A stretch of DNA of 64,000 nt from IMG/VR virus record IMGVR_UViG_3300045988_036168. One strand, 5' to 3'. Origin of the DNA: a virus. Made by a program: the position numbers and the translations under genes. The notes below the pieces were generated by a model. That model did no database searches, was not told where the DNA came from, and saw only the letters and a list, made by a program, of their open reading frames with translations. Below, in pieces: positions 1 through 57,452 of this stretch (position 1 is its first letter; each line of letters begins with the position of its first letter).

Positions 1-673
1 GGGGCGTATTCGTGGATACGGTGCCGTCATCAGAGACCAAGAGTGTAGAGGGAAGAACCAAAGCGGGGCGGATGCCGAACGAGTAGGATGCGTAGTAGTG
101 GCTGCAGCCGCCATCGGTGAGGACGACCCACACGTAGTTGGTGTTGATGGTGAGCGGGGAGCGGAGCCACCAGCCGGCGGCCGATCCGTTCAGGTACGCA
201 ACTCGCTTCGAGTCTGCATTATTGGTGACGCACGAAGCAAAATAGCTCAGTACAGCACCTTCGCCAGAGTCGATATAGCTGTGCTCGTAGTGAACTTCAG
301 GGGCGCTCAGCAAGAAGATCTTGCAAGGCAAACCGTTTGCTCCCTGCTGCGTCGTACCACCAGAACCGCCGTTCTTGCGATACGGGAGCTTTACCTGCTT
401 GATTGCGCCCTGAATGTTGCTATCAAACAGTTTCAAGAACGTGTTGTTCAGGTAAGAGTGGATGTCGCTGCTTTCGTACTTGTTGATATTTCCGCTCTGC
501 CAAACGCGGTTCTCGTAGATGTCCTTCATCAGCAGCCAAGTGCCGTTGCAAGACTCGTCGTACACGCTGGACGGCTTGCCCTGATGCACGACGATGAACT
601 CTCTCGCCTTGCCGTTGACCGTCAGCTTGACGGTACTGCCAACGGCCTTGGTGCTCAAAAGCACATTTGCCAT
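1..673 (-). CDS. DGR target protein 1, partial (3' end beyond window); WWLRSP...GIRPAL variable-domain framework (C-type-lectin-like / DUF6273-like, from memory)
   Basis: ATG 673-671 with AGGAGG at 687-682; hand translation MANVLLSTKAVGSTVKLTVNGKAREFIVVHQGKPSS...LNGSAAGWWLRSPLTINTNYVWVVLTDGGCSHYYASYSFGIRPALVLPSTLLVSDDG stays open to nt 1; absent from ORF track because truncated. Confidence 0.8.
   Translation of the reverse strand, partial: MANVLLSTKAVGSTVKLTVNGKAREFIVVHQGKPSSVYDESCNGTWLLMKDIYENRVWQSGNINKYESSDIHSYLNNTFLKLFDSNIQGAIKQVKLPYRKNGGSGGTTQQGANGLPCKIFLLSAPEVHYEHSYIDSGEGAVLSYFASCVTNNADSKRVAYLNGSAAGWWLRSPLTINTNYVWVVLTDGGCSHYYASYSFGIRPALVLPSTLLVSDDGTVSTNTP
32..62 (-). promoter_or_regulatory. 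Conserved post-VR flank (candidate IMH-associated target-recognition element), copy 1
   Basis: 25/31 nt identical to 48210-48240 next to VR2, incl. identical 12-mer AGAGACCAAGAG (+ strand) 19 nt from both repeats; sequence next to TR (2120-2150) is unrelated. Confidence 0.5.
63..185 (-). repeat. DGR variable repeat VR1
   Basis: Gap-free 123-bp alignment to TR (offset 2088); 21 mismatches by hand count, all at + strand T of TR (= coding-strand A). Confidence 0.9.
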
Positions 674-696
674 TTCGTTTTCCTCCTTGATAAGAG

Positions 697-1902
697 TTAA
701 GAGTCAGCCCACGGAGGAACGTCCGTGGGGCGTTGGGCATAAGAAAAGGAGCCGGATTTCTCCGTCTCCCTGTTCTGATGCTGTTTCTTGTAGAGGTTGC
801 GGCATTGGCAAAGCCTTCGCTTATCGCGTACCGCACGGTTTCCGTTGAGTTTCCGGTGGATCTCCACCGGCTCACCGATGATAGCCTCCACCTTCTTTGC
901 GTATTTCGCCCGCAGCTCGTGCGTATCGCCGTATGCCGCGTGTGCGTCCCACGCTCCGAAACTCTGGAGGATAGCGTCCTTCGTAACCTCGCCGCGCTTG
1001 TAGGCTTCCTCCCAGAACTTCACCTTCGCACGGATTCGCTGGATGCTGTCCCGTCGAAGTTTCTGGATGATGCCACCGCTTTCGGTAATGTACGAATGGA
1101 AGCCGAGGAAGTCGATGCCGTTCCTCAGCGGAAAGATGCCAGTCTTCTGGTTCAGCTCCAAACCCCAGCCGTCCATCAGCGCCCGAATGTCCTTCAGGAT
1201 CTCCTTCAACCGCTGTTTGTCTGAGAGGATGACGTAGAAGTCATCCATGTATCGCCCGTAATACTTCAGGCGGTATTTCTCTTTCATCAGGTGGTCGAAC
1301 TCGTCCAGAAACATCAGAGCGAGTAGCTGGCTGGTCTGGTAGCCGAGGGGTAGCCCGTCGGTCGTATTGATGTAGACGCACAGCAGATCATAGATCTGCG
1401 GGTCTACGCCACGCTTATCGAGCAGCGCCTTTAGTTTGCGTTTCAGCTTGTCGTGGTCGATGCTGGCGAAGAAGTGATGCACGTCTCCTTTGAGAATCCA
1501 CCCATTGGTTCCTTGCCTCTCCCGCCGGTAGTAATCGACCATGTGCTGCTTCAGCCGCATCAAACCATCGTTGGTGCCCTTACCGGTCTGACTGGCGAAA
1601 TTGTCCCGAATGAAGCTCTTCGTGATGGCTTCATACAGGATGTTGTCCACGACCGCATGGAGGACGACTTTGTCCACGAACGCGGGTGCTTGGACGAGCC
1701 GCTTCTTCGGCTCATAGACATAAAACACCTCAAACCTGCTCGGAACGTAGGTCTTGGTGCTCAGGATCGTTGACAGCTTCTTGGTACAGGCCAGAACATT
1801 CGCCTCGTACTGGGCGGTTCCCGGCTTTGACCGTTTCCGCTTTCTGGCCTCCAAGTAAGCTGCGTACAGCGTTTCAAAGCTGCACATCTCTTGATAGGTC
1901 AT
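697..1902 (-). CDS. DGR reverse transcriptase
   Basis: Start MTYQEM at 1902 (ORF 697..2139 trimmed); motifs SQTGKGT, LPLGYQTSQ (DGR-type GxxxSQ), YMDDF; TR lies 248 nt upstream. Confidence 0.9.
   Translation of the reverse strand: MTYQEMCSFETLYAAYLEARKRKRSKPGTAQYEANVLACTKKLSTILSTKTYVPSRFEVFYVYEPKKRLVQAPAFVDKVVLHAVVDNILYEAITKSFIRDNFASQTGKGTNDGLMRLKQHMVDYYRRERQGTNGWILKGDVHHFFASIDHDKLKRKLKALLDKRGVDPQIYDLLCVYINTTDGLPLGYQTSQLLALMFLDEFDHLMKEKYRLKYYGRYMDDFYVILSDKQRLKEILKDIRALMDGWGLELNQKTGIFPLRNGIDFLGFHSYITESGGIIQKLRRDSIQRIRAKVKFWEEAYKRGEVTKDAILQSFGAWDAHAAYGDTHELRAKYAKKVEAIIGEPVEIHRKLNGNRAVRDKRRLCQCRNLYKKQHQNRETEKSGSFSYAQRPTDVPPWADS
708..729. repeat. Palindromic hairpin motif CCCACGGA-N6-TCCGTGGG (copy 1 of 3)
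   Basis: 8-bp perfect stem; 13-mer GGAACGTCCGTGG (716-728) identical to 57421-57433; related copy 12376-12393; sits in the last codons of the RT gene, 35 nt before the target ATG. Confidence 0.6.
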
Positions 1903-2150
1903 AAACTCGCTTCTTTGCTGTTGTTGCTTCCTCTGGTCTGGGTATAGGGCAAGCTCCAGACCAGCCATCACTCCTAACACCGGTCGTCTTGCCCCCGGCA
2001 GCCGCAGCATCCAAGTCGGGATGGCGAGCCTCGGTGTGATGTGTTTATCGTCCATCCATGCACAGACGGGCGACAGGATATGACTCCCTTTGATGATGGT
2101 GTACTGTGTTCGTCCCATCGGAGGGATTACTAATCTCACTTTCCATCAGA
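1903..2150 (-). ncRNA. TR-RT spacer, presumed part of the DGR RNA
   Basis: 248-nt gap (in-frame upstream extension of RT ORF has no RBS); 9-bp hairpin 1933-1941/1956-1964; role inferred from the BPP-1 DGR, where the spacer after TR primes cDNA synthesis. Confidence 0.4.
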
Positions 2151-2273
2151 GCGGGGCGGATGCCGTTCGAGTTGGATGCGTTGTTGTTGTTGTAGTTGCC
2201 ATTGGTGTTGACGTTCCACACGTTGTTGGTGTTGTTGGTGTTCGGGGAGCGGAGCCACCAGTTGGCGGCCGAT
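2151..2273 (-). repeat. DGR template repeat (TR)
   Basis: Coding-sense reading AANWWLRSPNTNNTNNVWNVNTNGNYNNNNASNSNGIRPA (16 Asn codons); master copy matching VR1 (123 bp) and VR2 (109 bp). Confidence 0.9.
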
Positions 2274-2321
2274 GCGAGTCATACCCTAACTCAAGGCGGA
2301 TGCCTCCGCCATGAACCCTGA

Positions 2322-2912
2322 TTACTTCCGTGCGGACTGGGCTGCGGAGCAAGCGGACATCACCAGATTGTAGAGGCTCCTGTCCTCCTTTTCCTTCGCT
2401 TCCGAACGGAGCTTGTTGGCTCTGCCGCGGTCTCCCTTCAGCCACGCCATCGCCATATACTTGACGTCTGTGACTTTCTTGGTCCAGACGCCCGCCTTCT
2501 TCACGCTGATGATGCCTTCGTCCATACAGATCGTGATATACTCCAGCAGCAGGGAGCAGCCGTCCACCACTTCCTCGATCTTGTGGATTCTATCCTCATA
2601 CGCCACCACGAAGTTCGTGTTGTTGGCGCGATGGATGTCCGTCAGGATCTTTTTCGCGGTTTCGCGCATATCCTCTCCATACATTCGGAAGGTACTCTTT
2701 GTGAAGCCCTCCTTGTCCTTGGTGTCAAGGACGTGTACGACCTCTTGGCAGACCATCTTGACATCGCAGATGTCGTCGAGCTCGGCAACCCGTGTGATAA
2801 TTGCTCGAACGTCGGCCTTGCTGATGTCGCCGGAGACAACTCTCGTCGCCTGCTTGGTGTACTTCAGAAGCTCCCTTGCTCTGTTGCCAAGCAGAAACTC
2901 CTTATCGGCCAT
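2322..2912 (-). CDS. Putative DGR accessory protein (Avd-like helical bundle with N-terminal extension)
   Basis: 196 aa directly upstream of TR; ANNTNFVVAYEDRIHKIEEVVDGCSLLLEYITIC...VTDVKYMAMAWLKGDRGRANKLR resembles the Avd pattern with a basic C-terminus; longer than typical ~120-130 aa Avd. Confidence 0.4.
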   Translation of the reverse strand: MADKEFLLGNRARELLKYTKQATRVVSGDISKADVRAIITRVAELDDICDVKMVCQEVVHVLDTKDKEGFTKSTFRMYGEDMRETAKKILTDIHRANNTNFVVAYEDRIHKIEEVVDGCSLLLEYITICMDEGIISVKKAGVWTKKVTDVKYMAMAWLKGDRGRANKLRSEAKEKEDRSLYNLVMSACSAAQSARK

Positions 2913-3156
2913 GTCTGCACTTCCTTTCCAGGCATTGCCCGTTTAATACGGCGGCCAGATCTTCAGGCTCGCCGATAAAAATGCAGCAGTCGCTCTTGAC
3001 GGTCAGCGTCCCATAATTTTGAGCGTGGGTCATACCGCAGATGACAAGATCGGTGCTGCGTCTGAGGTCGCACGGAGGCGTGATCGCTGAGAACAGGTTC
3101 CCGATGATGCAGGAAATTTCATCAGCGGGGCGTGAGAAAATGATTTCCTCTGCCAT
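2902..3156 (-). CDS. hypothetical protein (84 aa)
   Basis: Start MAEEII at 3156 in ATGA overlap with upstream gene stop; co-oriented; no motif recognised. Confidence 0.4.
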   Translation of the reverse strand: MAEEIIFSRPADEISCIIGNLFSAITPPCDLRRSTDLVICGMTHAQNYGTLTVKSDCCIFIGEPEDLAAVLNGQCLERKCRHGR

Positions 3157-10785: not shown

Positions 10786-11313
10786 CTAATACGACAGGCT
10801 GCCGGTCACAGTCAGGTTGCCCTCGACGGTGACTTCGGGCGCAGAAATCGTCACGGAGCCTCCCTTGACGGTCAGGCGGGTTCCCTTCACATCGACGATG
10901 ACCGCATTTTGGGCGCAGGCATCCGCGACCACGGAGTTCCCTTGGGCGAACAGGCCGGGAATACAAATCGCGTTCGTCATGTCGAAGGCCAGATCCGTGC
11001 TGGTTTCCTGCCCGTACTGCCAGTAGTCGAGGCTCTGCTCGGCCACCACCAGAAGGCAGCTATCTCCGGGCTTGACCGGAAAAGCGACTGTTGCGCCCTG
11101 TGCGTTCCCCTGTGGGAATACGACCGGAACGCCGGTGACTTGCGGGAAATCCATCGTCTTCCCGTCCGGTTTCTTGAACTTCATCGCGGGCTTGACCGTT
11201 GCGATGCCCTTTGCGGCGTCAAAGCTGACGATCTGACCCGGCATGGCCGTATGGATGCCGCGAAGCCCACGCTGGACGGTGTTTTGGATCTCCTGCACAA
11301 ACTCCTGCATCAT
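10786..11313 (-). CDS. baseplate spike / assembly protein V-like (Gp138-N type)
   Basis: Start MMQEF (RBS GGAGGTG); PGQIVSFD...ATVKP...VPVVFP pattern; C-terminal VTISAPEVTVEGNLTVTG. Confidence 0.6.
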   Translation of the reverse strand: MMQEFVQEIQNTVQRGLRGIHTAMPGQIVSFDAAKGIATVKPAMKFKKPDGKTMDFPQVTGVPVVFPQGNAQGATVAFPVKPGDSCLLVVAEQSLDYWQYGQETSTDLAFDMTNAICIPGLFAQGNSVVADACAQNAVIVDVKGTRLTVKGGSVTISAPEVTVEGNLTVTGSLSY

Positions 11314-12176
11314 TACCCCTGCACCTCCATAAGTCGCGCCGTGCACGTCCAGTCACCGGAGATGTTATCCCCGGCCTGCGTCAGCTTGGCGACGCGGAAA
11401 TAACCCGTGACGGTCTTGCTCTCCAGCTTCACATAGTCGTCAATGTGGATGGCCCCGTTCAGGAAGAACTCGACCTCCCACCCGATGCTGGTCTTATCGC
11501 TCGTTTCGGAGTTGGCCTCGGTGACGCGGGCAGGGATGCCCAGCAGCCCAGAGTCCTCAGAAAGAACGAAGACCTCACGGCTCATGACGTCCCCCGGCTT
11601 CTTGACCTGCATGACGCCGTTCTGCAGACTCCACACGAGGCCGCAGCAGGCGCAGCCCTTCGTCATGATGTCGCGGGCAAGGCCGACAAAGCTGAAGCCG
11701 TTGGCGATGTCGGCAAACTCAGCGTTGTACGAATACGTCACCGCCACACCCATCTGATTTGCCACATCGTCGAAGATGGTCTTCCAGTTCACCGTGCCAA
11801 CATACGAAATCGTGACGTAGGTATCGCGGATCTCGACGAGGTTGTCTACCACCTCGATTTCCGTCTTGCGGTCTGCGCCGTCGTGGGTCGTGACGCAGTT
11901 TGTGACGATGCCGGCGAAAATCAGCGGCATACGGCTTCCGTAGCCCGCCTTCAGGGACAGGACGCAGTCCTTTTCGTCCAGAGTGGCAAGGTGCTCCTTG
12001 TTCAAGTTCCAGACGGTCACGCGCCCCGTGTTCTGCGTTTCAAGGTCGGTGCGCTCAATGGAGAAATTGATGTGCAGCGGGACGGGCTGGCTCTTCGACT
12101 TCTCGCCGATCTCGAAGCCCATGCTGCCGGCTTTACCTGCAGCCAAGCGATACTCTCTGTCAAAGTTCGCAGACAT
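11313..12176 (-). CDS. baseplate hub (XkdQ / late-control-D-like)
   Basis: Start MSANFD at 12176 (RBS GAGGGGGG); size and position. Confidence 0.55.
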   Translation of the reverse strand: MSANFDREYRLAAGKAGSMGFEIGEKSKSQPVPLHINFSIERTDLETQNTGRVTVWNLNKEHLATLDEKDCVLSLKAGYGSRMPLIFAGIVTNCVTTHDGADRKTEIEVVDNLVEIRDTYVTISYVGTVNWKTIFDDVANQMGVAVTYSYNAEFADIANGFSFVGLARDIMTKGCACCGLVWSLQNGVMQVKKPGDVMSREVFVLSEDSGLLGIPARVTEANSETSDKTSIGWEVEFFLNGAIHIDDYVKLESKTVTGYFRVAKLTQAGDNISGDWTCTARLMEVQG

Positions 12177-12254
12177 CAAAATCCCCCCTCTCGTTTTACA
12201 AACGACTTTGCTCAAAAAGCAAAATCACGAAAAATAAGCAAAGAAAACACGCTC

Positions 12255-12273
12255 GTGCGTTTGCAAAACGCAC
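12255..12273 (-). terminator. hairpin, weak terminator candidate inside the tail operon
   Basis: GTGCGTTT-GCA-AAACGCAC 8-bp stem; on minus strand a T-rich run follows after 6 nt. Confidence 0.3.
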
Positions 12274-12289
12274 ACCAAATATATTTACT

Positions 12290-12341
12290 GGTTAGGTTAG
12301 ATTACGGTATAGGTTACGGTTACGGTTACGGTTACGGTTAT
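12290..12341. repeat. Hexanucleotide tandem array (GGTTAG/GGTTAC)n, copy A
   Basis: Four perfect GGTTAC units 12312-12335 plus degenerate units; 24 nt (12302-12325) identical to 57378-57401. Confidence 0.85.
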
Positions 12342-12344
12342 GCG

Positions 12345-12401
12345 CGGACTGTCCTCGGATTTCATGTGTGACCATCCCACGGAGCGTCCGCGGACAGTCC
12401 G
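12345..12401. repeat. Inverted repeat following hexamer array A
   Basis: CGGACTGTCC (12345-12354) / GGACAGTCCG (12392-12401), 37-nt spacer containing palindrome copy 12376-12393. Confidence 0.7.
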
Positions 12402-12422
12402 TAGGACGGATAGAAAAGTGGG

Positions 12423-12743
12423 TCAGTCGCTATCTTCCGCAGGGCAGAATACGAAACTGGCCTTCCCGTCGAGAAAATCATTCCTCCCGATGTGCTCCAG
12501 CTTGGTCATCACACCGAAAACACCGCTTGGCAACGCGGTCACGCCGTAGAACAGGTTCATAGGGAACCTCGGTACAATCTTGATGCCGATGACGATAGGC
12601 TGACTCTGCGTGTCATAGAGGCCGAACTTCCAGAAGCCGCCGCGGTCGTTCCATGTGAACCGAATCAAATACGCCTTGCCGTTCAGAACGACGCGGCTCA
12701 TGCTGTCATTGAGGTCTGGGACTTCGATGATCGTATATTCCAT
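12423..12743 (-). CDS. baseplate plug-like protein
   Basis: 106 aa; LIRFTWNDRGGFWKFGLYD pattern as in baseplate plug proteins (from memory); position. Confidence 0.45.
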   Translation of the reverse strand: MEYTIIEVPDLNDSMSRVVLNGKAYLIRFTWNDRGGFWKFGLYDTQSQPIVIGIKIVPRFPMNLFYGVTALPSGVFGVMTKLEHIGRNDFLDGKASFVFCPAEDSD

Positions 12744-21289: not shown

Positions 21290-21658
21290 TTACTTGTTCT
21301 CGTCGGCAGCCTTTGCGGCAGCGGCCTTCTTGGCGGCGTCAGCCTTGGCCTTATCCTCTGCAGCCTTCTTGGCAGCAGCTTCCGCCTCAGCCTTGGCCTT
21401 CGCGTCAGCTTCGGCCTTCGCCTTGGCTTCTGCCTCGGCCTTCACCTTGGCCTCCTCTTCCAGTTTTCTCGCAGCAGCCTCTTCGACGGCCTTCTGGAAG
21501 GCGGCGTCGCTCTCGTCGGTCTCCAGCAGCCCCTTGGCGATGAACGCCTGAATGGCGGGCAGCTTGAGAGTGGCCTCGTTGATGTCCATAGACGCATCGG
21601 GCATGAGGATCGTCGTGCCGATGTTGATAATCTTGGAGCCCTTATTTCTGATCTTCAT
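21290..21658 (-). CDS. head-associated protein with Ala/Lys/Glu-rich repeat tail
   Basis: Start MKIRNK (RBS AGGAGG); KAEAEAKAKAEADAKAKAEAEAAAKK low complexity. Confidence 0.5.
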   Translation of the reverse strand: MKIRNKGSKIINIGTTILMPDASMDINEATLKLPAIQAFIAKGLLETDESDAAFQKAVEEAAARKLEEEAKVKAEAEAKAKAEADAKAKAEAEAAAKKAAEDKAKADAAKKAAAAKAADENK

Positions 21659-23375: not shown

Positions 23376-24857
23376 TTACTTTTCCTCCTTTGCTCTATTC
23401 TGGCGACGCTCGATCATCTTCTGGCGGGCGGAATCAGCGGAACCGACGCCGTTGCTGACAGGGGTGCGAGAGTCGCGGTTGAACATCTGCTTCTTCTGGT
23501 AGCCGACGTCCTTCTTGGAGCGGGACTCGACATCGGCGACGGCGTACTCGAACGCAGCGTTCACGAACGCATCGCTCTTGCCGTCCAGACGCATCTCGGG
23601 ACGCACAGCCTTGATGATGGCCTTCTTGGCGGCGGAGATACTCATATCCTCAACACCGTCGAGGTTCAGGGCCTTACCGATCATGCCGATCTTCACGCGC
23701 TGGCGGATGATGGCGTCGATGCCGTCGGCGTTCAGGACTTCGCCCTGGGTGTGGTCGGCAGGCGTCGCGGTGGGAATCGCGTCGTCGTCGCTGTCCTGAT
23801 TGTCGGTGTCGTCACCCTCGTCGTTGTTCTCGTCGGTGGTGTCATCACCCTCGTCGGTCTGAGGATCGGTGCAGCCAGCCTCGTCGAACTCCTTCTGCGC
23901 GAGCAGAGTGTCGATGATGTCGAACAGGATGTCCATGTCCTCGTCCTGATTGGCAATGACGCCCTTCGCGGACTCCAGATCCTCAGGGTCGCCGTCAGCA
24001 TCGCGGCGGTCACGGTTGTCCTTGACAGCCGCCACCTTATCCTCGACAGTCTGAGGCTCCTGACCGGCGGGAGCGACAACGGTATCGTCGTCATCCTGCG
24101 CAGCAGCGGGGGCGTTGGTGGGCTTGGCGCTGACTACGGGATCAGTACCCTCGGTGGGGTCCTCGTCGGTCTTGGCGGCGAGGCGCTGAGCACGGCGGGC
24201 CTTGTACTCCTCGATGGCCTTGGCGAGCTCTTCCGGGGACAGAACGCCATCAGCGCGACGAGCATTCTTGGGAGCATTTTTCTTCTTCATGACTTTTCCT
24301 CCTTTGAGAGTTCTTGCAGGATCACGGCCATCAATATTTAACCGCGCCTGTTCACCGGCTCTGGCTTCCCGGACCAAGGCCAAGTGGTTGATGCGGATGT
24401 CCCGCTGGATGGCGTCGTAGTGCTGGCCGTTCCACTCACCCGGCGTTTCATCGAGCGTCAGATTGTAGCCGAGGGACAGCTCCTTCAGGCCGCAATACCG
24501 CATCTCGTCGGTGTTGTGAATAACGATCTCCGCACGGACGTCATCCCCGCTTCGATACCCTTCTGTCAGGATGGTGCCGATCTGATGCTTCTGGACGTTG
24601 TCCTTATCCACCAGACCCGCATCATGCGTGATGATGATGGGCTTGCCCTGATACGAGGCAAGACTCTCAGCAGCGAAGACTTCCTCAGGGAGCCGAAGCT
24701 CCCTCCTGACGCTCCCGTCAGGGTTGGTGTACTCGAAGATACCCGTGCTGGTCAGGATCGGCCTGTCCATCAGGTAGCCTTCGGGAGTGAAATACGTCTG
24801 GTTCAGCGGGAGGCTGTCCAGACGGATCACCTGAGATAATTTCGGGGCCTCACTCAT
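23376..24857 (-). CDS. scaffold / prohead-maturation protein (DUF2213-like)
   Basis: Start MSEAPK (RBS GGAGGTG); PEGYLMDRPILTSTGIFEY...GKPIIITHD N-domain; long acidic linker. Confidence 0.6.
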   Translation of the reverse strand: MSEAPKLSQVIRLDSLPLNQTYFTPEGYLMDRPILTSTGIFEYTNPDGSVRRELRLPEEVFAAESLASYQGKPIIITHDAGLVDKDNVQKHQIGTILTEGYRSGDDVRAEIVIHNTDEMRYCGLKELSLGYNLTLDETPGEWNGQHYDAIQRDIRINHLALVREARAGEQARLNIDGRDPARTLKGGKVMKKKNAPKNARRADGVLSPEELAKAIEEYKARRAQRLAAKTDEDPTEGTDPVVSAKPTNAPAAAQDDDDTVVAPAGQEPQTVEDKVAAVKDNRDRRDADGDPEDLESAKGVIANQDEDMDILFDIIDTLLAQKEFDEAGCTDPQTDEGDDTTDENNDEGDDTDNQDSDDDAIPTATPADHTQGEVLNADGIDAIIRQRVKIGMIGKALNLDGVEDMSISAAKKAIIKAVRPEMRLDGKSDAFVNAAFEYAVADVESRSKKDVGYQKKQMFNRDSRTPVSNGVGSADSARQKMIERRQNRAKEEK

Positions 24858-26511: not shown

Positions 26512-29500
26512 CTATTTCCCATCTACCTCTTGCTGCTTGTAGACCAGCCCGTACTCATGCGCGTGTAGCTGGAGATACAAGTCCGTCTCCGCAATTAGGT
26601 CGTTGCGCGTCATGTCGCCGTCCTGATACTTCTTCTCAAGCGACTCAAGGTGCGTAGCCACCGACCTTGCAGAGTAGCCATCATAGTCGCTCGTCTTCTG
26701 TAACGAATACAGCTTGGTCTTGCTGGTCATATACATGACCTGTTCGTCGGCATTGGCAAAGCTACGGACATCGGTGTCCGAGAAGCAGCTATCCGTATCG
26801 CCGGGGTGATTATGCAGGGTGGAGTATGCCACGTTGTTCTGGCCGCTTTTTACGCCGTGTGCGCTTCCGGTATCTCTTGCGATTTCGTTTCCGTCTTCGT
26901 CATACGACACGAGGGTTTCATCCGCATTGTTGCGGATTTCAAGGCTGGCCTTCTCTGCCGATTTTCTGACCTTCGAGTCGTCAGGGGCTTTATCAGCTAC
27001 GCGCTTCCGCTCTTTTGCGACCTCTCGCAGCTTTTCATCTACCAACTCGTCGAGCTTGCCAGCCTGAATGGCCTTATCGACCTCTCGGAAGCGCATTCCC
27101 TTTTCCACCAGAAACTCTGCCTTGAAGTCTTCACTTTTCCCGTGAAGCAGTTTCGAGGCAGCAGGCGTCAGGGATGGCGCAGAGCCGCCAACTTGGCCCG
27201 GAACTCCTTCATGGCCGTGGTTGCCCGAGCCGGGGCCACCGTCGAGATCGGAGGAATCCCCTCTATTTCCGACTTCCTCAAGCGTAAGTTTCACGGCTTT
27301 GTATTTCCCAACGGAATAATCAGGGTTGGTATCAAGAACCTTGAATCTTGCCTTTTTTGAATACAGGACTTCATCCATGTCAACGTCGGCCACATCCTTG
27401 ATGGAAACACCACTCTTCGACTTGCATTCAAGCACAACGTTGTACGAATCAGGGTCATCACCGTCTCTGGATCTGAACACTCTCTTTAGAGCATCATCCC
27501 CAGTAGACCAGCTTGACAGATGACCGAGTCCGAACGTGCTGTTCCCTGACGACTCTGCGATGAACTTATCAAAGGCATCCTTGTCCATTGTCATTGCGCG
27601 CTTTGTCGTTCCTTCGTACTTATCTGAGAGCGAAATCGCTTTTTCAATGGCCGCTGCGCTCTTTTCGGCGGTAGCCTTTTCTTCACTATCCATCAGTGAA
27701 CCGCGCGTCGCATACACACCGGAGTACCCAGCAGAAGCCGCCACGACATCCTTGTAGTTCCGTGTGTAGTCAGATGTAGCATCGACCATTTCTTGCACTT
27801 CACGGTCGCTCAGTTCGCGTCCGGCGTTTTTGCTCCACTCGGATTTTTTTGCAGAGTAAACTCCTCTTTCAAGTCCGTGGCTGGTTTCACCGTCGTATGG
27901 AGAGGTGCTTCCCTCGCGCTCCTCCGAACCACCGATTTCACCTTCGCGCCCTTTGTGCCCAAAATTCCCGCTTCCCGGCCCGCCGTCTTCATCAAAAGGG
28001 GCGAAGCCTTCTGGCTCAGCCTCCCCGTTTGCGATAGCTTTCACCAGTGCAACGTCATCCGCGAACGGCTGAAACAGAGACGGCTTGAGCTGTTCGATTT
28101 CATCCAGCGTTCTGAACTGCGGGTCGGCCATTTCGCCATCCACGCAATTCGGCTCGCCTTCGTACTCAGTACACAGGAAGATGTACGGCTGAATGCCGGT
28201 GTCAGGCTCCATAGGACCTCTTCCGAGCGGGATCAGCTCTTTCGGGCTGATGCCGAACTCTTCTTCAACTTCGCGGAACGCCGCCTGCTTCGGAGACTCG
28301 CCTTCCTTGATGTGACCGCCGGGGCCACAAATCAGGCCGTGGCCGAACTCCGTCTTTCTGGTTCCACTCAGAACCTTGCCCTGAGAGACCACCAGAACGC
28401 CTACGCAGGCTTTTGTATCTTCGGGGGTAGATGTATTCCCATCACCCTTGACATCCTGTACCGAGGCTTTAGCGCGATTTTGCGGGGCATTGGCGGCTGA
28501 CTGTTGACGTTCCTCGTCGCTCATGTCCTGCGGCAGCTTGGTCGCAGCAGGTGCGGCGGCGGGAGCTTCACCGTCTCCGCCGGGGTCTTTCTTGTGCTCT
28601 TCGGTGCTGGTGCCCTCGGCATAGTCAGCGAACTGGCCCTGCTCGAAAATGCTCTGCCCAACGTCACCGGAAACCTGACCGCCCTCTGCAGGCTCGTCGG
28701 GGAACAGATTCTCGTCGTCGTATTCGTCGAGCATATTCTCGACGTCGAACTCCTCACTGTCGGCCAGCTTGGCGCGAACCTCACTCGGGTCGATAACCTG
28801 CTTGTCGATGTAAAGCTGGGCAGTCTGCGCTCTGGCGAGCTGTGTCTGCGCCCGCTTCTGGTCAAGGTCTGCCTGCTCCGTGTCGCTGAGCGACCACAGG
28901 GGGTTGAACTCCACCTTGATCTTCGGCACTTCATCCACTTCGCCGGTACGGACGCCTGCTTGGAAAATGACCGACAGCAGATAGCGCAGGTTCTTCTTCA
29001 CCATGCGCTTCTGGATGCGCTCCAGATAGTTGTACCAGTTTTCCAAATCAGCGTCGCCGGTGGCGTTCATGCCTGCCGGCGAACGGCCAAAAAGAATGGT
29101 CTGAGGAATCGAGGTCAGCGCCGACAGGAAGTTGCAGGTCGAGTCGATGACGTCGGAGACGCCGCTGAACTGGAACTGCCTGAAGTCGTAGTCCTCGCCT
29201 TCGCTGTCAATGGTAATGCTGTTCAGCAGGCCGCGGGCCATGTCAATCGTCTGCAGACGGCGCAGGACTCTGTCCTCACCCTCTTCGGTGGCAAGCTCTG
29301 CGGCCAGATCCTTCATCTTGTAGACCGCCTGAACGGAGCGGTCGAGCAGCTTCGTTGCGCTGCCGTGGGCCACTTCCGCGTCACGGATGGCCCTGTTGAT
29401 TCGCACATACTCGGGGATGCCCCAGAGCTGGTAAATCGAATTGGTCGTGTTCTCGGGCAAGATGCCGTTCTGGAACACCAGGCACCGGCTGTCGTGAACG

Positions 29501-30117
29501 GTGAACGAACCGGTGCGGCTCGTCACGTGGTAGAACTCGGGCATACCGAGGCGGGAGCCTCTGGTGCGGAACGGGTCACGCGGGTCGTAGGAGAACATAC
29601 TCTGATAGTCGGGCTGGATCACCGAGCGGTCATAGACGCGAATATCGTCAATCGACCGGATGTTGCGCCAGTCCAGAGGCTCGTCGATGCCGCGGCCGTC
29701 GTTAATCATCATCACGGCGATGGAACCTCCGAAGAGCCGCGCCCAGCGGATGGCGGTCATGGCCGTTTCTTCCCAGTCCAGCTCGTCGAGGGCCTCCGTA
29801 TAGAAGTCCTCGATTTTCTGGTCTTTGGTGCTCTCCAGCGTGAAGCCGTGCTTGATGGCCTCCTCTGCGGGCGTGTCGATGATTTTCGCAAACAGGCCGT
29901 TGCCCTCGTAGTACATGGTGAGCAGTTCATCGGGAACCACAGGCTCGGCACGGAACCGATACCCTTCCGTGGTGTCCTTGCTCGTGCCGTACTTGTTCAT
30001 CATGTTCACGTAGCCGTCGGCTCGGTAGGGGCGAACGGCCTTGCCGGTCTGCATCTCGATCAGGTGGGCGTACCTTTTCACGATGCGCTCGGCTTGGTCT
30101 TTGCGTCTGTCGTCCAT
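26512..30117 (-). CDS. portal protein fused to Nudix, ADP-ribosyltransferase-like and JAB/MPN-like domains (polyvalent protein)
   Basis: aa 1-470 portal-like (DUF1073 type); Nudix box GHIKEGESPKQAAFREVEEEFGI (28249-28320); R/SxS/E ART-like pattern (KRAM, SSWST, DEVLYSKKARFKV); HNHPGDTDSCFSDTD (26770-26814); two DGGPGSGNxGHxG...GGS linkers. Confidence 0.85.
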   Translation of the reverse strand: MDDRRKDQAERIVKRYAHLIEMQTGKAVRPYRADGYVNMMNKYGTSKDTTEGYRFRAEPVVPDELLTMYYEGNGLFAKIIDTPAEEAIKHGFTLESTKDQKIEDFYTEALDELDWEETAMTAIRWARLFGGSIAVMMINDGRGIDEPLDWRNIRSIDDIRVYDRSVIQPDYQSMFSYDPRDPFRTRGSRLGMPEFYHVTSRTGSFTVHDSRCLVFQNGILPENTTNSIYQLWGIPEYVRINRAIRDAEVAHGSATKLLDRSVQAVYKMKDLAAELATEEGEDRVLRRLQTIDMARGLLNSITIDSEGEDYDFRQFQFSGVSDVIDSTCNFLSALTSIPQTILFGRSPAGMNATGDADLENWYNYLERIQKRMVKKNLRYLLSVIFQAGVRTGEVDEVPKIKVEFNPLWSLSDTEQADLDQKRAQTQLARAQTAQLYIDKQVIDPSEVRAKLADSEEFDVENMLDEYDDENLFPDEPAEGGQVSGDVGQSIFEQGQFADYAEGTSTEEHKKDPGGDGEAPAAAPAATKLPQDMSDEERQQSAANAPQNRAKASVQDVKGDGNTSTPEDTKACVGVLVVSQGKVLSGTRKTEFGHGLICGPGGHIKEGESPKQAAFREVEEEFGISPKELIPLGRGPMEPDTGIQPYIFLCTEYEGEPNCVDGEMADPQFRTLDEIEQLKPSLFQPFADDVALVKAIANGEAEPEGFAPFDEDGGPGSGNFGHKGREGEIGGSEEREGSTSPYDGETSHGLERGVYSAKKSEWSKNAGRELSDREVQEMVDATSDYTRNYKDVVAASAGYSGVYATRGSLMDSEEKATAEKSAAAIEKAISLSDKYEGTTKRAMTMDKDAFDKFIAESSGNSTFGLGHLSSWSTGDDALKRVFRSRDGDDPDSYNVVLECKSKSGVSIKDVADVDMDEVLYSKKARFKVLDTNPDYSVGKYKAVKLTLEEVGNRGDSSDLDGGPGSGNHGHEGVPGQVGGSAPSLTPAASKLLHGKSEDFKAEFLVEKGMRFREVDKAIQAGKLDELVDEKLREVAKERKRVADKAPDDSKVRKSAEKASLEIRNNADETLVSYDEDGNEIARDTGSAHGVKSGQNNVAYSTLHNHPGDTDSCFSDTDVRSFANADEQVMYMTSKTKLYSLQKTSDYDGYSARSVATHLESLEKKYQDGDMTRNDLIAETDLYLQLHAHEYGLVYKQQEVDGK

Positions 30118-30134: not shown

Positions 30135-31559
30135 TCAAATCAGGTTGCCGACGTTGAACGCCGTCTTCGTTTCGATCTCCGCAAATGCGTTGGCGCTTGC
30201 ATCGACCATATCCTTGAACTTTCCGTCTGGGAAGTTCTCAAGCTGCGTAAGATACACCTCGTTCCACTCGCCATACATGATGTCGAAGTTGCCTGCCTGC
30301 CATTGGGCGGCCATAGGCTCGGCTCTGGCCTCTTTACTGCCGCTTTCAGCGACGGCCGTAACGTCGAAGCCAGACAGGAACTTGATGTAGGACTCGGCCT
30401 GCTCTTTACCGGCTTGGCCGGGGTCTTTCGGCAGGCGGACTCGGACGCGCTTGTACGCCGCACGGTCTGCCTGAGCAGTCAGCTTTATCGTCTTTCGCAC
30501 ATCGGAGGCGTTCATCTGCTTGTTGATGACGTCCGCGATGACGTATCGGCCGTTCTTCCGCTTGCCCATCAGGACGCCAGCGGTATAGGCCGGGTCGCCG
30601 TTCTCGGTCTTCTCGGTTGCCGCCAAGTCCCAGCAGCGAACCCACTGGATGACGTCCTGCGGCATGATGGTCAGGATCTCGCCAAGCTGCGTTCTCTTGA
30701 AGAACAGGCCGGCGGCGGCCCTGATCTTCCAGTTGCCTTTGAGGAGTCGCTCGCGCTGGATGACCGACAGTGCCTTCAGGTTTGACAGGTAGCCGGGGTC
30801 GATGCGGAGCAGCTCTTGGTTGTCGTACACAGAAGACATGATGAACGTCACCGACTTCGGCTCGTTCTTCTCTTCCGGTGTGGTCAAATTGAAGCGTTCC
30901 CAGAGTTCCTCTCTGGTGTCCGCCCAGTAAACGACCTCGTCGCGCCGAATCATGTAGCGAATGAGGCCAGACCGCTCAGGGATGGGATAGCCGGTGTCTT
31001 GGTCGATCCACCATGCGATGAACTTCGCCACCCAGCTATCGGCGTCAGGGTTGCAGGTCGCTCGAACGAACGGCCTGACGCCGCAGGTCGAACGGTTACG
31101 GGACAGCATATAGAAGAAAATCTCCTCGCTGAAATGCGTCAGCTCGTCGAAGCCAATCTCGCAGATCTGAGCGCCCTGCCAGTTGTCCAGCTCCTCCGAA
31201 CGCTCGATGTGCGCGAAGGACACCTTGGAAACCTCGTTGCCGTCCTTATCCCGAAACGACCACGTGCCGTCCGAGATTTTCCGCTGTGCCCCGTTGATAC
31301 CGTGGTACATCTTCTGGGCTTCATCCCACAGGCCGCCTTGGGCGAAAATCTGCTTGTAGTTCTTCCTGAAGATCGTGCAGCCGAAGCCCTTGACATTCTT
31401 GTATCTCAATGCCGACAGCAGCAGGCCGTAGGTCTTGCCGCCACCGGCCGCTCCGCCGTAGATGCAGATGTCCGCAGGGGTCGCAAGAAACTTCTCTTGC
31501 GGGCCGAACTGCGGCTTCAGCACACGGACTTTTCTCTCAGGACTCTTGCTGGTCGCCAT
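30135..31559 (-). CDS. terL: terminase large subunit
   Basis: Walker A GGAAGGGKT; ATPase + nuclease layout; 474 aa. Confidence 0.9.
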   Translation of the reverse strand: MATSKSPERKVRVLKPQFGPQEKFLATPADICIYGGAAGGGKTYGLLLSALRYKNVKGFGCTIFRKNYKQIFAQGGLWDEAQKMYHGINGAQRKISDGTWSFRDKDGNEVSKVSFAHIERSEELDNWQGAQICEIGFDELTHFSEEIFFYMLSRNRSTCGVRPFVRATCNPDADSWVAKFIAWWIDQDTGYPIPERSGLIRYMIRRDEVVYWADTREELWERFNLTTPEEKNEPKSVTFIMSSVYDNQELLRIDPGYLSNLKALSVIQRERLLKGNWKIRAAAGLFFKRTQLGEILTIMPQDVIQWVRCWDLAATEKTENGDPAYTAGVLMGKRKNGRYVIADVINKQMNASDVRKTIKLTAQADRAAYKRVRVRLPKDPGQAGKEQAESYIKFLSGFDVTAVAESGSKEARAEPMAAQWQAGNFDIMYGEWNEVYLTQLENFPDGKFKDMVDASANAFAEIETKTAFNVGNLI

Positions 31560-32013
31560 CGTCCCTGCCGTTTGCGGGGAGATAGATCAGAACATCTTCG
31601 GAATCATCGCCGGCGGAGAGGGCGACTTCCTGCCGCTGCGCCCACTGGGTACGCTTGCGGTTGTTCAGCCAATACATAATTGCCATAGTGTCTGGCACTA
31701 TGTTCTTCGTCGTGTTCTTGATGCGGACGGGCTTCGGGTTGCCATCCTTATCCATGTCGATTGTTTTCTCGGTGTCGGTAATCTGGTAGCCCAAAGCCCT
31801 TTGATAAAGTGCCTTCTCGACCTTAGAGTCGGCGATGTTCTTTCCTCGCTCGACTGCGTCGTTCAGGCTCTCATGCTCCTGCTTCCAGCGAATAAAGGTG
31901 CGCGTCGAGATGCCGAAAGCCTCGGCAATCTCGTCGTTCGTGGCTCCCTTGATTGCCAGCGACCAAGCCCAATCGTCGTGGTATTCGGGATTGTACTTGC
32001 TGAGGGCCGGCAT
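31537..32013 (-). CDS. terS: terminase small subunit
   Basis: HTH-type GATNDEIAEAFGISTRTFIRWK; overlaps terL start. Confidence 0.7.
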   Translation of the reverse strand: MPALSKYNPEYHDDWAWSLAIKGATNDEIAEAFGISTRTFIRWKQEHESLNDAVERGKNIADSKVEKALYQRALGYQITDTEKTIDMDKDGNPKPVRIKNTTKNIVPDTMAIMYWLNNRKRTQWAQRQEVALSAGDDSEDVLIYLPANGRDDGDQQES

Positions 32014-32023
32014 ATCACATCAC

Positions 32024-32935
32024 TCACTTTCCTGCCAGATATTCGGTGGCAAGCATTTCGATCAACTGCCAGCGGTTCTTGCTCGTGATGGCACCGTCCT
32101 TCTCGGCCTTCTTGATGGCCTTCGTAATGGTAGCTGCAGACTCCGCAGGGATGGCGTTGCTGCCGAAAATCTTCGTCAGATACGTCCACTCCTCGTCGTC
32201 CTTGAAGCCGACCTCGTCCATCTTCTCCGTGACGCTCTCGATCATGGAGTGGATGGCGGCGCCGACGTTGCGGATGTCGGAGAACTTCTGGTAGCGGGCC
32301 AGCGCCTCGATGAACTGCTTGCACTGCTCGTAGGGCGCGACACCGATAATCTCAGGTGCCGAGGACTCAAGATTCTTCACCAGCGCATCCATGTCCTTCA
32401 CCTGATGCGGCAGGAACGAAAACGTGATGTTCTTGAAGTCGAAATGCACCGCCGGGGACAGCAGCTTATCGTACTGCTCCAGAGGCTCCTCCATGATGTC
32501 CTTGCCGATGAAGCTCTCCAGCATATCATCCACGTCGTCGAGCATCTTGCAGATCTCGCGCAGGATGGACGGGTCATCGAAACCGCTGATGGCGTTGTGT
32601 GCCAACTGCTTCGATGCGATCTTGGAGCGGGACAGGCCGCTCACGTCGATGATGGCGATAATCTCCTTCATGCCGGCGGCGCGGGCGCTCTTGATGCGGT
32701 GGTGGCCGGAGATAATCTCCAGAACGCCGTCTTTCTCCACCAGCAGGGGCAGGCTCTCAAGCTGGCCGCGGTTCTTGATGTTCGCGGTGAGCTGATCCTG
32801 CATTTCCTTCCTCATGATGCGGGCGTTGATGTCCTGCTCCCGCACCTTATCAAGCTGGACTTTGGCGATAATCAGGCCGGTGCCCATGTCGTAAATCTTC
32901 TCGTAGCTCATTGCTGTGCTCTCTTCTGCTGCCAT
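32024..32935 (-). CDS. ParB-like nuclease-domain protein
   Basis: Start MAAEEST (RBS GAGGAGGGAG); GHHRIKSARAAG ParB/Srx motif. Confidence 0.75.
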   Translation of the reverse strand: MAAEESTAMSYEKIYDMGTGLIIAKVQLDKVREQDINARIMRKEMQDQLTANIKNRGQLESLPLLVEKDGVLEIISGHHRIKSARAAGMKEIIAIIDVSGLSRSKIASKQLAHNAISGFDDPSILREICKMLDDVDDMLESFIGKDIMEEPLEQYDKLLSPAVHFDFKNITFSFLPHQVKDMDALVKNLESSAPEIIGVAPYEQCKQFIEALARYQKFSDIRNVGAAIHSMIESVTEKMDEVGFKDDEEWTYLTKIFGSNAIPAESAATITKAIKKAEKDGAITSKNRWQLIEMLATEYLAGK

Positions 32936-34302
32936 TGTTTCTCCCTCCTCAGCCATTCGGCCAACGTAGCCTTCTCGTCACGGCCAGCCACAAGGGCGGC
33001 CTCATAGGTCAGCTTGTACCCGTTCTTCGCGTCCTCCTGCCGGTTGACCAGCTTCATGATGCCGCGAACCTCTTTGTTCTCGGCGTACTTCGTGAGCATG
33101 GCTGTACGCATCTTCGTGACCTTCTCTTGGTCGATGTCGTCGAGCAGCGTGTCCACGAAGCTCTGGTTCTGGGCCAGCATATAGCAGAGACGGCCGAGGC
33201 GGTACAGCTTGTGCGGTGCCTTCATGACGTACCACACAAAGATGGAGTCCGCAGCCATCTTCGAGATGCCGAAGACCGCGGCCACATAGCCGTCGATCAG
33301 GACAGCACGGTTGTAGGTCGCCTGCGAGCCTACGAAGTTGTGCGTCCAGAGCATCCGGTAATACTGCGCGTTGGCGCCGGCGATCTGGATAATTCGGATG
33401 TCGCTGTCCTCTGTGATCTCATAGTCGAGCGGGAGCATACTGCATTTCAGAGGCTCCAGCTTGCCCTCCTGCGGGCGCTTGATTTTCTTCCCTTTGGCAA
33501 GGGCCACGGCTTCCTCTTCCCTGTTCGTCGTGATGTACGAGTTCAGGTCGGCGCGTGTCCCAGAGCGGGCAAAGATGGTGTGGCCGACGGCCTCACCTGC
33601 CCGTTTCTCCTGATAGCACAGGAGCAGAGCGGGAGCGTCCATCATCATGTCATAGAGCTGCTGATGGCCGGTCTCAGGGTCGAACATACCGTAGGGTGGC
33701 TCTTTCCAAGTCATCTTTCCCTGCGTGTCGTAGAACTTCTCATAGCCGGCGAAATACGTCGGCGGATTCGCCACGATGATCGTATGCGGGTCGTCCTTCA
33801 CCTCACGGAGATGATCCCACATATCCAGCGGGCGGTAGCTCATACCACCGAGCAGGCTCTTCGTGGCCTCAAGCTGTCGGCGTATGCTCTCGATGTGCTC
33901 TTCACGCCTGTCGTGCAGGTCGCGCAGGATGTTGTGGAAATACTCGTTCCCTGCGCTCTTCGATGTCCGCAGATAGATTTGCGCGTACAGAGCTACGGCC
34001 GGGTCTAACAGCTCTTCATCGGAGAAGCCCTGCGCGTGGATCTGCAGCGGTTCGAGAGACTGGCCCGTGATGGCGTAGCCCATCACCGAGGTCATCATGT
34101 TCACGTCGCTGGTTTCGATCTGCTCAGGCTTGAACCCCGACTGGACTGCCAGATTCGCCATAGCGAATGTACCGGCGCATGGCTCTACGAACCGCGTGTA
34201 CCCAGAACGCCGAGCGGTCTTAATGAGCTCAATCAAAAACTTCTGCTCAACACCGTTCAGGCACCCGAGGAACATCGCTCCGGGGTCCATAAAAAACGCC
34301 AT
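32908..34302 (-). CDS. DNA methyltransferase, Dam-like (N6-A or N4-C class)
   Basis: Motif I-like FVEPCAGTFA and motif IV-like IIVANPPTYF; paired with ParB-like gene. Confidence 0.5.
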   Translation of the reverse strand: MAFFMDPGAMFLGCLNGVEQKFLIELIKTARRSGYTRFVEPCAGTFAMANLAVQSGFKPEQIETSDVNMMTSVMGYAITGQSLEPLQIHAQGFSDEELLDPAVALYAQIYLRTSKSAGNEYFHNILRDLHDRREEHIESIRRQLEATKSLLGGMSYRPLDMWDHLREVKDDPHTIIVANPPTYFAGYEKFYDTQGKMTWKEPPYGMFDPETGHQQLYDMMMDAPALLLCYQEKRAGEAVGHTIFARSGTRADLNSYITTNREEEAVALAKGKKIKRPQEGKLEPLKCSMLPLDYEITEDSDIRIIQIAGANAQYYRMLWTHNFVGSQATYNRAVLIDGYVAAVFGISKMAADSIFVWYVMKAPHKLYRLGRLCYMLAQNQSFVDTLLDDIDQEKVTKMRTAMLTKYAENKEVRGIMKLVNRQEDAKNGYKLTYEAALVAGRDEKATLAEWLRREKQWQQKRAQQ

Positions 34303-35292: not shown

Positions 35293-35369
35293 TGGCACGG
35301 ACGGTTGGGAATCGAACCCACCACACGCGGTTTTGGAGACCGTGTCGCCACCTTGGGACATTCGCCCGT
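35293..35369 (-). tRNA. tRNA-Trp(CCA)-like, irregular
   Basis: ACGGGCG..CUCCAAA loop..GGUUCGAUUCC..CGUCCGU-G-CCA; A1:U72, G73, canonical T-loop and GG in D-loop; only 4 clean bp in anticodon stem and a G.A mismatch in T-stem. Confidence 0.55.
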
Positions 35370-42575: not shown

Positions 42576-42590
42576 CGTTATTTCCTCCTA

Positions 42591-42624
42591 CTGGTTATCT
42601 TAAATTATCCATCTGGTTATCTTA
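42591..42624. repeat. 12-bp direct repeat CTGGTTATCTTA x2 bracketing operator-like site ATTATCC-ATCT-GGTTATC
   Basis: Copies 42591-42602 and 42613-42624 (22-bp period); 42604-42621 resembles the operator motif at 55593 and 55933. Confidence 0.5.
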
Positions 42625-42631
42625 TGAGTAT

Positions 42632-42659
42632 ATTATACTGCGTTACCTACCTAAGTCAA
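42632..42659 (-). promoter_or_regulatory. near-consensus sigma-70 promoter
   Basis: Minus strand TTGACT - 16 nt - TATAAT in a visibly AT-rich intergenic island. Confidence 0.6.
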
Positions 42660-42729
42660 TAGATTTACGTTAATTTTTCTATATTATTTCCATAATCATA
42701 AATTATTCCGTTAATGTTATCAGCAGGCA

Positions 42730-55926: not shown

Positions 55927-55955
55927 ATTATAATTATCCACGTGGCTAATGTCAA
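55927..55955 (-). promoter_or_regulatory. consensus sigma-70 promoter (leftward) with operator in the spacer
   Basis: Minus strand TTGACA - 17 nt - TATAAT; the 17-nt spacer is almost entirely operator motif ATTATCC-ACGT-GGCTAAT (55933-55950). Confidence 0.7.
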
Positions 55956-57315: not shown

Positions 57316-57325
57316 AAACACATAC

Positions 57326-57349
57326 GGGGCATCGCAGCAGCGGTGCCCC
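57326..57349 (+). terminator. GC-rich hairpin after the lysogeny operon
   Basis: GGGGCATCGC-AGCA-GCGGTGCCCC; no U-tract on plus strand. Confidence 0.35.
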
Positions 57350-57364
57350 AAAACTATATCTAAC

Positions 57365-57416
57365 GGTTACGTTACGTTTACGGTATAGGTTACGGTTACG
57401 GTATGGTTACGGTTAT
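57365..57416. repeat. Hexanucleotide tandem array (GGTTAC)n, copy B
   Basis: GGTTAC and degenerate units; 57378-57401 identical to 12302-12325. Confidence 0.85.
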
Positions 57417-57420: not shown

Positions 57421-57452
57421 GGAACGTCCGTGGATTTTTGGTCGGACGTTCC
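57421..57452. repeat. Perfect 10-bp inverted repeat with 12-bp spacer, 32 bp upstream of int (attP-core or operator candidate)
   Basis: GGAACGTCCG-TGGATTTTTGGT-CGGACGTTCC. Confidence 0.6.

Follow-up and report, generated by a model that had tools for sequence, protein, structure and literature searches.

A candidate replication-origin-type iteron module present in two extragenic copies in a Brigit-like temperate phage

Introduction

Phage SPP1 carries oriL in gene 38 and oriR in a non-coding island of the late region, which holds morons and is bracketed by transcription signals; gp38 binds both sites, each of which combines repeats with an AT-rich unwinding element (PMC6316719, PMC5737612). 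OriR may stall forks as well (PMC6316719). Here we describe a repeat module in a 64,000-nucleotide stretch of viral DNA, IMG/VR virus record IMGVR_UViG_3300045988_036168 (the whole stretch is called the window hereafter), which, judged from its genes, is a prophage like Faecalibacterium phage FP_Brigit. The module, an array of GGTTAC hexamers followed by phased GGAN3TCC units, occurs once in the gap between the baseplate hub gene and a gp49-like virion protein gene (site A), and once directly upstream of the large serine integrase gene, int (site B). We propose, with moderate confidence, that Brigit-like temperate phages have an iteron module of the replication-origin type, of which sites A and B are two copies outside any gene.

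The window resembles the SPP1 oriL/oriR-G38P system in its two putative origin-type sites per genome, in the pairing of direct repeats with an AT-rich tract (short in the window), bound by the organizer in SPP1 and possibly here, and in the position of one of the sites in a non-coding island among late genes. Unlike in SPP1, neither of the full copies lies within a gene, a degenerate cluster being all that is present in the organizer gene; the repeats are GGAN3TCC 11-12-mers accompanied by a microsatellite-like GGTTAC array, whereas SPP1 has AB boxes; and the phage is a temperate myovirus of Oscillospiraceae, known from sequence alone, in which one copy abuts int. The origin of lambda lies inside gene O, with four 18-19-bp iterons and no hexamer array, and lactococcal P335-type origins likewise lie inside replisome-organizer genes. 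As in these phages, iterons occur in the linker of the initiator gene, where they are read through as protein, in two independent phages (L538 and L524) and in partial clusters; by contrast, the complete modules of the window stand outside its organizer gene. The module resembles known iteron-type origins and would be a variation on that known type.

Results

Architecture of the two copies

Sites A and B follow the same order: a hairpin preceded by an AAAACAC box, an AT box, a (GGTTAC)n array with degenerate hexamers at the 5′ end and perfect ones at the 3′ end, and GGAN3TCC units spaced 11-12 bp apart (Table 1). The initial annotation of the window had pointed to hexamers and an inverted repeat at both places. 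Its coordinates for the two sites, the 246-nt gap that holds site A (from the hub start at 12176 to the stop of the gp49-like gene at 12423), the four perfect GGTTAC units, the arms of the inverted repeats and the 24-nt identity between 12302-12325 and 57378-57401 were all confirmed. Alignment of A with B extends the homology to the left, as far as the AT box, the hairpin and the AAAACAC box. The left flank of site A (12192-12311) ranks fourth among the 120-nt stretches of the window for AT-richness.

Within the window, hexamer arrays of this kind are found at sites A and B only. The dodecamer GGTTACGGTTAC has 9 matches with two mismatches or fewer, against 2.0 expected, and none of 100 shuffles reached 9; Tandem Repeats Finder counted 9.5 and 9.2 copies. 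In the literature, this dodecamer was found solely as a fission-yeast telomere repeat. Clusters of GGAN3TCC are also restricted to the two sites. Their 9-bp cores start at 12346, 12357, 12369, 12381, 12392 and 12403 at site A, and at 57421, 57432, 57444 and 57456 at site B. Measured over 24 distinct relatives, consecutive cores are 11 bp apart 38 times and 12 bp apart 37 times. A weight matrix derived from 105 units reads RY-GGA-N-T-K-TCC-R-C with a T-biased centre, indicating that most units are direct repeats, not true palindromes.

These data recast the inverted repeat. Its arms correspond to units 1 and 5 of site A (CGGACTGTCC at 12345-12354 and GGACAGTCCG at 12392-12401) and to units 1 and 3 of site B (GGAACGTCCG at 57421-57430, then, after 12 nt, CGGACGTTCC at 57443-57452), which happen to be in inverse orientation. 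The differences between the arms of A and B had been read as compensatory, and the dyad as conserved. This reading was not borne out: on 9 site-B orthologues, pairing reached 78.9% against 78.7% after shuffling, with 286 of 500 shuffles at least equal, and the variable centre positions of the dyad were mostly unpaired. Several cluster-1 arrays (L007, L128, L132) have no inverse pair.

Conservation and distribution among relatives

The module was recovered by pattern scans and protein-anchored searches of viral, metagenome and genome contigs. It resides in phages of gut Clostridia, namely Oscillospiraceae (Faecalibacterium-type, Oscillibacter, Lawsonibacter, Flemingiibacterium), and in one Acetatifactor prophage. 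At the gp49/hub junction, it is present in 39 of 39 usable relatives whose hub identity is 68% or more, the gaps there measuring 222-617 nt, and is missing in two distant phages only, whose gap measures 37-38 nt. Upstream of int, serine-integrase lineages retain it down to 57% identity, with the exception of one lineage at 59.5%, and in L071 it precedes a tyrosine integrase. In FP_Brigit itself, a degenerate copy separates gp33 from gp34 and the gp49-gp50 gap holds an 11-mer cluster only; another prophage family, which includes the Acetatifactor prophage L065, carries the module after the lysis cassette. Close relatives thus retain the module at the gp49/hub junction, and an assembly artefact is ruled out, since both copies turn up in dozens of independent assemblies, viral and metagenomic, and a complete genome contains site B as well.

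Wherever the strands of the flanking genes could be assigned, the direction from hexamers to 11-mers is that of int and antisense to the late genes. It is correct, as first noticed, that the two copies are opposite in sense relative to local transcription, but their orientation is the same relative to the late-gene strand and to int.

The positional orthologues of the window and contig 080159, compared A with A and B with B, are 78-79% identical, for flanking proteins that are 73-78% identical. The paralogues A and B, by contrast, share only 63-66%, showing that the two copies are old, separate and constrained. By this comparison, both copies have long been under selection. Concerted evolution of A and B was rejected on the same figures. 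Lineage variants point in addition to specific binders that co-evolve with their sites: the hub-gap modules of L176 and L177 have the hexamer GGTGAC in place of GGTTAC, and at site A of L197 the unit GTGACAGTCAC replaces CGGACWGTCCG, with both half-sites altered. Longer versions of the module have a second and a third iteron cluster downstream.

At a finer scale, near-identical phages differ at site A in the run of perfect hexamers, with 2, 3, 4 and 5 units in 1, 5, 60 and 2 loci (counted as loci, not as unique contigs), a polymorphism that provides a ready strain marker. The site B array showed no variation in 36 near-identical loci. In one near-identical phage, L246, the last unit of site A is flipped. 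The gp49/hub junction also receives inserts: gp50/gp51 in FP_Brigit, a helix-turn-helix (HTH) gene, recognized by eye, in L131, and 1.5-2.7 kb in L238 and L282. Like the setting of SPP1 oriR, the junction is likewise a moron hot spot.

A whole-genome pattern scan yielded about 20 true hits, all in gut Clostridia, the rest being swamped by acyl-CoA dehydrogenase genes. The peptide GGYGY..(E/D)YP..E of these enzymes back-translates to the search pattern in many phyla (genome_contigs loci L041-L160), a trap for motif searches.

Repeat units and complete modules inside replisome-organizer genes

The replisome organizer of the window, a homologue of FP_Brigit gp10, is named by PHROGs only (phrog_9474, annotated as 'replication initiation protein', and phrog_13246, annotated as 'replisome organizer'); the protein has no match in Pfam, NCBIfam or solved structures by sequence. 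The linker-coding part of its gene contains three related units (Table 1) in a 12-bp tandem repeat coding for (K/T/A)-D-G-x, and the 12-mer GTGTGACCGTCC is common to this gene and to site A of most sibling phages. Much clearer clusters appear at the equivalent position (nt 386-449) of organizer genes in viral contigs, with 4-5 units in L304-308, 3 in L368, 4 in L372/373 and 2-4 in L369, L371 and L397. Overall, partial GGAN3TCC clusters are seen in the organizer gene of the window and in at least 8 other organizer lineages. Linkers with such clusters encode x-[DE]-x-P repeats. In 26 of 88 [DE]xP sites, drawn from 38 sequence clusters, both synonymous positions required by the motif (G before GA, T before CC) are present, where about 10% would be expected (binomial p=3e-7).

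The complete module, with hairpin, degenerate-to-perfect hexamers and 11-12-mers, lies inside the organizer open reading frame (ORF) in two independent phages, L538 and L524, whose organizers belong to phrog_9474, as does that of the window. In both, it directly follows the N-terminal domain, and its orientation relative to the organizer gene is as in the window. L538, with the gene order SSB, organizer, loader, RusA, has hexamers that read TVTVTVT and units in mixed frames, and in L524, a high-GC phage, the hexamers translate to NRNHNRTVT. Since the arrays are conserved across reading frames, the selected object is the DNA. The feature is real, functional and DNA-level, and the protein-binding iterons suggested in the initial annotation are supported by the retention of the arrays in different frames inside a gene. 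The organizer linker is the classical place of the origin in phages of the lambda O and SPP1 G38P types, and the location of the embedded modules therefore favours an origin.

Do embedded units and extragenic sites vary together? In contig 022065, 3 of 4 embedded organizer units recur in its own site A, and the rare GTGACAGTCAC variant is shared by a single site-A module, that of L197, and a single organizer gene, that of L346, where it lies close to the 3′ end. Strict co-variation was nevertheless rejected, as the correspondence is only partial: one lineage has 3 of 4 units in common, another has 0 of 3, and one contig is mosaic. No further iteron-like array was found in the replication module of the window.

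Support for an origin-type module and a possible mechanism

Iteron origins are recognized by at least three to four helically phased direct repeats and by a phage-encoded initiator and helicase loader. Sites A and B have six and four units, at 11-12 bp, and the window encodes the phrog_9474/phrog_13246 organizer and, directly downstream of it, a DnaC/IstB-like loader. From these features we infer that an initiator would bind the module and that the module may fire as an origin. In the mechanism that we propose, the N-terminal domain of the organizer would bind the GGAN3TCC units as a phased oligomer, and the hexamer array, the AT box and the hairpin would form the region that is distorted or unwound. 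The opened region would then let the DnaC-like loader bring in the host helicase, so that the two extragenic copies would act as origins. Alternatively, they might be tightly bound initiator sites like SPP1 oriR, which stall forks and aid the switch to concatemer synthesis. In either case, the initiator on site B could also occlude the int 5′ leader.

Several observations weigh against an origin. The AT boxes of the window copies are short, 12-13 nt, compared with (TA)n-rich tracts of 20-30 nt in many relatives. Neither site lies beside the organizer gene, the distances being 6.5 kb and 38.6 kb. Some lineages whose site-A modules are highly elaborate (L421, L380, L390) lack embedded units in their organizers, and the mosaic contig joins a site A of the window type to an organizer of only 52% identity, so that site and organizer do not strictly co-vary. 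The x-[DE]-x-P repeat of the linker could partly be a protein-level feature. Finally, site B invariably abuts the ribosome-binding site of int, the end of its unit array in the window being separated from the int Shine-Dalgarno sequence by 8 nt, and is co-oriented with int, which leaves room for a regulatory role.

The bacterial oriC reportedly has a basal unwinding system, described by Richardson et al. in 2016, made of DnaA boxes, DnaA-trios and an AT-rich region. The module shows a similar succession of double-strand binding boxes, a short-period track that is most perfect beside the boxes, and an AT-rich tract; it differs in the period, 6 nt as opposed to 3 nt, and in the initiator, which is DnaD/organizer-like and not DnaA. 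Purely by analogy, we infer that the hexamers may have a single-strand-binding role. Taken further, the hexamers might be the phage counterpart of the DnaA-trio track, along which the organizer or loader would spread from the GGAN3TCC boxes and open the AT box and hairpin, and the copies might serve as initiator-bound barriers or switches that couple replication to other decisions, a view that we hold to be quite unlikely. Under such a scheme, initiator bound to site B would shut off int at the onset of lytic replication, forks or transcription would be stalled within the tail operon by site A, and, in a lysogen, the copies would titrate the initiator of related superinfecting phages, as a Per-like decoy immunity.

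If sites A and B are indeed origin-type modules, the two-origin layout of SPP1 extends to temperate gut myoviruses. One and the same cis element can be housed within an initiator gene, where it is found in several reading frames, or else between genes at the borders of operons. For annotation, the island of non-coding DNA amid the tail genes, which had seemed anomalous, becomes explicable. The sequence comparisons also offer a candidate origin together with a putative initiator-binding motif, GGAN3TCC at 11-12 bp beside GGTTAC hexamers, for a phage family that is recurrent in human-gut metagenome and virome assemblies and whose hosts, Faecalibacterium and other Oscillospiraceae, have few replicons or genetic tools.

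Alternative explanations

The co-orientation with int raises the question of whether a phage transcription factor, such as the CII/YmfL-like homologue of gp05 (55030-55545), uses the module as an array of operator or activator sites, which we consider fairly unlikely. In this case, an activator-dependent promoter or a roadblock would drive or gate int at site B and, at site A, set up transcription within the late operon that is antisense or insulating, in the manner of lambda PI and PaQ. The constant orientation, with int and antisense to late genes, at A, B, FP_Brigit gp33/gp34 and L065 agrees with this, as do the position of the module, which immediately precedes integrase genes of two unrelated types and has no sigma-70-like promoter in its vicinity, and gp05 itself, which occupies the cII-equivalent position and has weak matches to CII-like activators (phrog_101, E=2.6e-5) and to YmfL. 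Lambda PI and PaQ similarly are dispersed copies of a repeat site, one upstream of int and one antisense in late-control functions, in a phage with a CII-like gene. Nevertheless, the module lacks -10/-35 geometry and a PRE-like copy: sigma-70 promoter scans of both strands at both sites detected no consensus and a minus-strand terminator-like hairpin at site A only, the -35/-10 arrangement of CII-type promoters is absent, and neither the PRE-equivalent place nor the cI/cro/gp05 region contains the module, the operators of the cI/cro switch being unrelated, ATAATTATCC-type repeats. Such an array would also leave unexplained the whole module inside initiator genes and the extra iteron clusters downstream. 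In the search with gp05, none of the contigs of the GGTGAC-hexamer lineages was among those returned. Should the signal instead be an RNA element of the late (minus) strand, the 11-mers, (GUAACC)n and the terminator hairpin would together form a nut/put-like or TRAP-like signal that controls termination between gp49 and hub and at the ends of antisense-int transcripts. On the late strand, the two copies agree in sense, a hairpin with a U-rich tail (GTGTTTT) follows each of them, and the stem of the site A hairpin is kept, through a compensatory change in L132, with loops that vary in L088, L128, L176 and L181. We judge this explanation very unlikely, as folds of either strand are unremarkable (z-scores of merely -0.5 to -1.4), Rfam 15 gave 0 matches at gathering thresholds and noise only at E up to 10, and pairing between units shows no covariation. 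Moreover, hairpin and arrays are kept within a coding region, where a terminator would be harmful, and near-palindromic units phased at 11-12 bp are typical of double-stranded DNA sites.

Short phased repeat arrays are also found in R1 parC, P1 pac/parS and the Xis/Apl/Cox arrays; the 11-bp iterons of R1 parC/ParR and the Apl/Cox arrays of phages 186 and P2 are cooperatively bound and sometimes lie at two places per genome. The module has in common with R1 parC and Apl/Cox a helical phasing of about 11 bp, one copy adjoins int, and the window encodes a ParB_N-domain protein, suggesting a packaging, partition or site-specific recombination site (TerS/pac, ParB/ParR iterons, or an accessory integrase or directionality-factor site), two of which, the recombinase and packaging sites, had been put forward in the initial annotation. 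This is barely plausible. Packaging by pac or cos expects a single site in or beside the small terminase gene (TerS), whereas the two copies stand at 12.3 kb and 57.4 kb, distant from it. For partition, no ParA or ParR partner accompanies the modules, and the sole candidate is a weak ParB_N-domain protein encoded at 32024-32956 (minus strand), directly upstream of TerS. Recombination is hard to reconcile with a module that precedes both serine and tyrosine integrases and that, unlike Apl/Cox arrays, is not at attP or the lysis-lysogeny switch; a serine integrase attP would be a single imperfect inverted repeat of about 50 bp beside int, particular to that integrase, and not two copies, and the FP_Brigit prophage end (attP) is downstream of int. 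The embedding in initiator genes speaks against all three functions. It equally disfavours a selfish or neutral repeat, that is, a microsatellite-bearing miniature mobile element inserted at operon boundaries with no phage function, as the module is kept in frame within an essential gene. The several intergenic hot spots (gp49/hub, upstream of int, FP_Brigit gp33/gp34, after the lysis genes, beside a Fic gene) and the polymorphic hexamer copy number would fit such an element. On the other hand, positional orthologues have kept 78-79% identity where the proteins have 73-78%, architecture and orientation are fixed, and no terminal inverted repeats or target-site duplications were noticed, neither having been searched for systematically, so that we regard a selfish origin as extremely unlikely.

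Genomic context and further features of the window

The genes of the window are collinear with those of FP_Brigit, with 27-68% protein identity over the 47 genes compared. Late, replication and early genes occupy the minus strand; the plus strand carries a cI-like HTH gene, orf305 and the large serine integrase gene. The genes flanking site A had been labelled plug and hub: the hub label stands (phrog_196), but its neighbour matches phrog_349, a 'virion structural protein', and the plug label was not confirmed. Between the cI-like HTH gene and site B, orf305 (56398-57315, plus strand) is 28-40% identical in the site-B contexts examined and has no family match in Pfam, PHROG or NCBIfam.

Table 1. 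Coordinates of the module copies, related units and relevant genes in the window.
Feature	Position	Strand	Remarks
Site A, AAAACAC box	12244-12250	+	left extension of the A-B homology
Site A, hairpin	12255-12273	+	GTGCGTTTGCAAAACGCAC; intrinsic-terminator-like on the minus strand
Site A, AT box	12277-12289		AAATATATTTACT; within 12192-12311
Site A, hexamer array	12290-12341	+	5′ end degenerate; four perfect GGTTAC at 12312-12335, then GGTTAT
Site A, six phased 11-12-bp units	12346-12411	+	GGACTGTCC, GGATTTCAT (degenerate), TGACCATCC (variant), GGAGCGTCC, GGACAGTCC, AGGACGGAT (degenerate)
Site B, AAAACAC box	57315-57321	+	directly past the orf305 stop
Site B, hairpin	57326-57349	+	GGGGCATCGCAGCAGCGGTGCCCC; between AAAACAC box and AT box
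Site B, AT box	57352-57363	+	12 nt
Site B, interrupted hexamer array	57364-57416	+	Tandem Repeats Finder, dodecamer scan
Site B, four phased units	57421-57464	+	GGAACGTCC, GGATTTTTG (degenerate), GGACGTTCC, GGAATATCC
Three related units, 12-bp spacing	50871-50902	+	CGCCGTCC, GGACCGTCC, TGACCGTCC; in linker-coding part of organizer gene
Baseplate hub gene	11313-12176	-	flanks site A; phrog_196, E=2.7e-61
gp49-like virion protein gene	12423-12743	-	flanks site A; phrog_349; 51% identical to FP_Brigit gp49
Large serine integrase gene	57484-59202	+	directly downstream of site B; phrog_95, E=2.4e-128
Replisome organizer / replication initiation protein gene	50455-51321	-	phrog_9474, E=2.7e-29; phrog_13246, E=1.1e-27; FP_Brigit gp10 homologue
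DnaC/IstB-like helicase loader gene	49564-50451	-	directly downstream of organizer gene; Pfam IstB_IS21, E=2.3e-16; FP_Brigit gp11 homologue
TerS	31537-32013		far from both module copies

Resemblances of the module to a DnaA box, LexA, CodY, Noc/parS and extracytoplasmic-function (ECF) promoter sites were judged by eye and dropped as unsupported. Elsewhere, TTATCCACG, which fits the DnaA-box consensus at 8 of 9 positions, is present at 55934-55942, in the cI/cro intergenic switch, and at 59341-59349, just right of the integrase terminator. Farther along on that side, small ORFs without family matches and a weak C-5 methylase fragment occupy 59300-64000, a region that could belong to the host or to another element.

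The stretch with the highest AT content in the window (42590-42720, 76-85% AT) is probably the late promoter region; it holds two copies of the direct repeat CTGGTTATCTTA and is situated downstream of a gene for an ArpU/DUF1492-like regulator (42766-43284). At the left end of the window, a diversity-generating retroelement (DGR) cassette homologous to that of FP_Brigit (5-2939, minus strand) comprises a Hoc-like target gene fragment (5-673), a reverse transcriptase gene (709-1902) and Avd (2385-2939). A tRNA-Trp gene (35293-35369) and an RtcB RNA ligase gene (43679-44851; Pfam E=2.4e-61), both on the minus strand, may together constitute a tRNA-repair counter-defence. Directly upstream of TerS, a minus-strand gene (32908-34302) encodes a fusion of a DAM-like phage methylase with a phage GNAT-like domain. 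A minus-strand ORF of 1201 aa (26512-30117) matches the FP_Brigit portal over portal residues 5-452 only, and genes of the head module include coding tandem repeats of 24 nt x3 (21378-21451) and 33 nt x2 (23785-23871).

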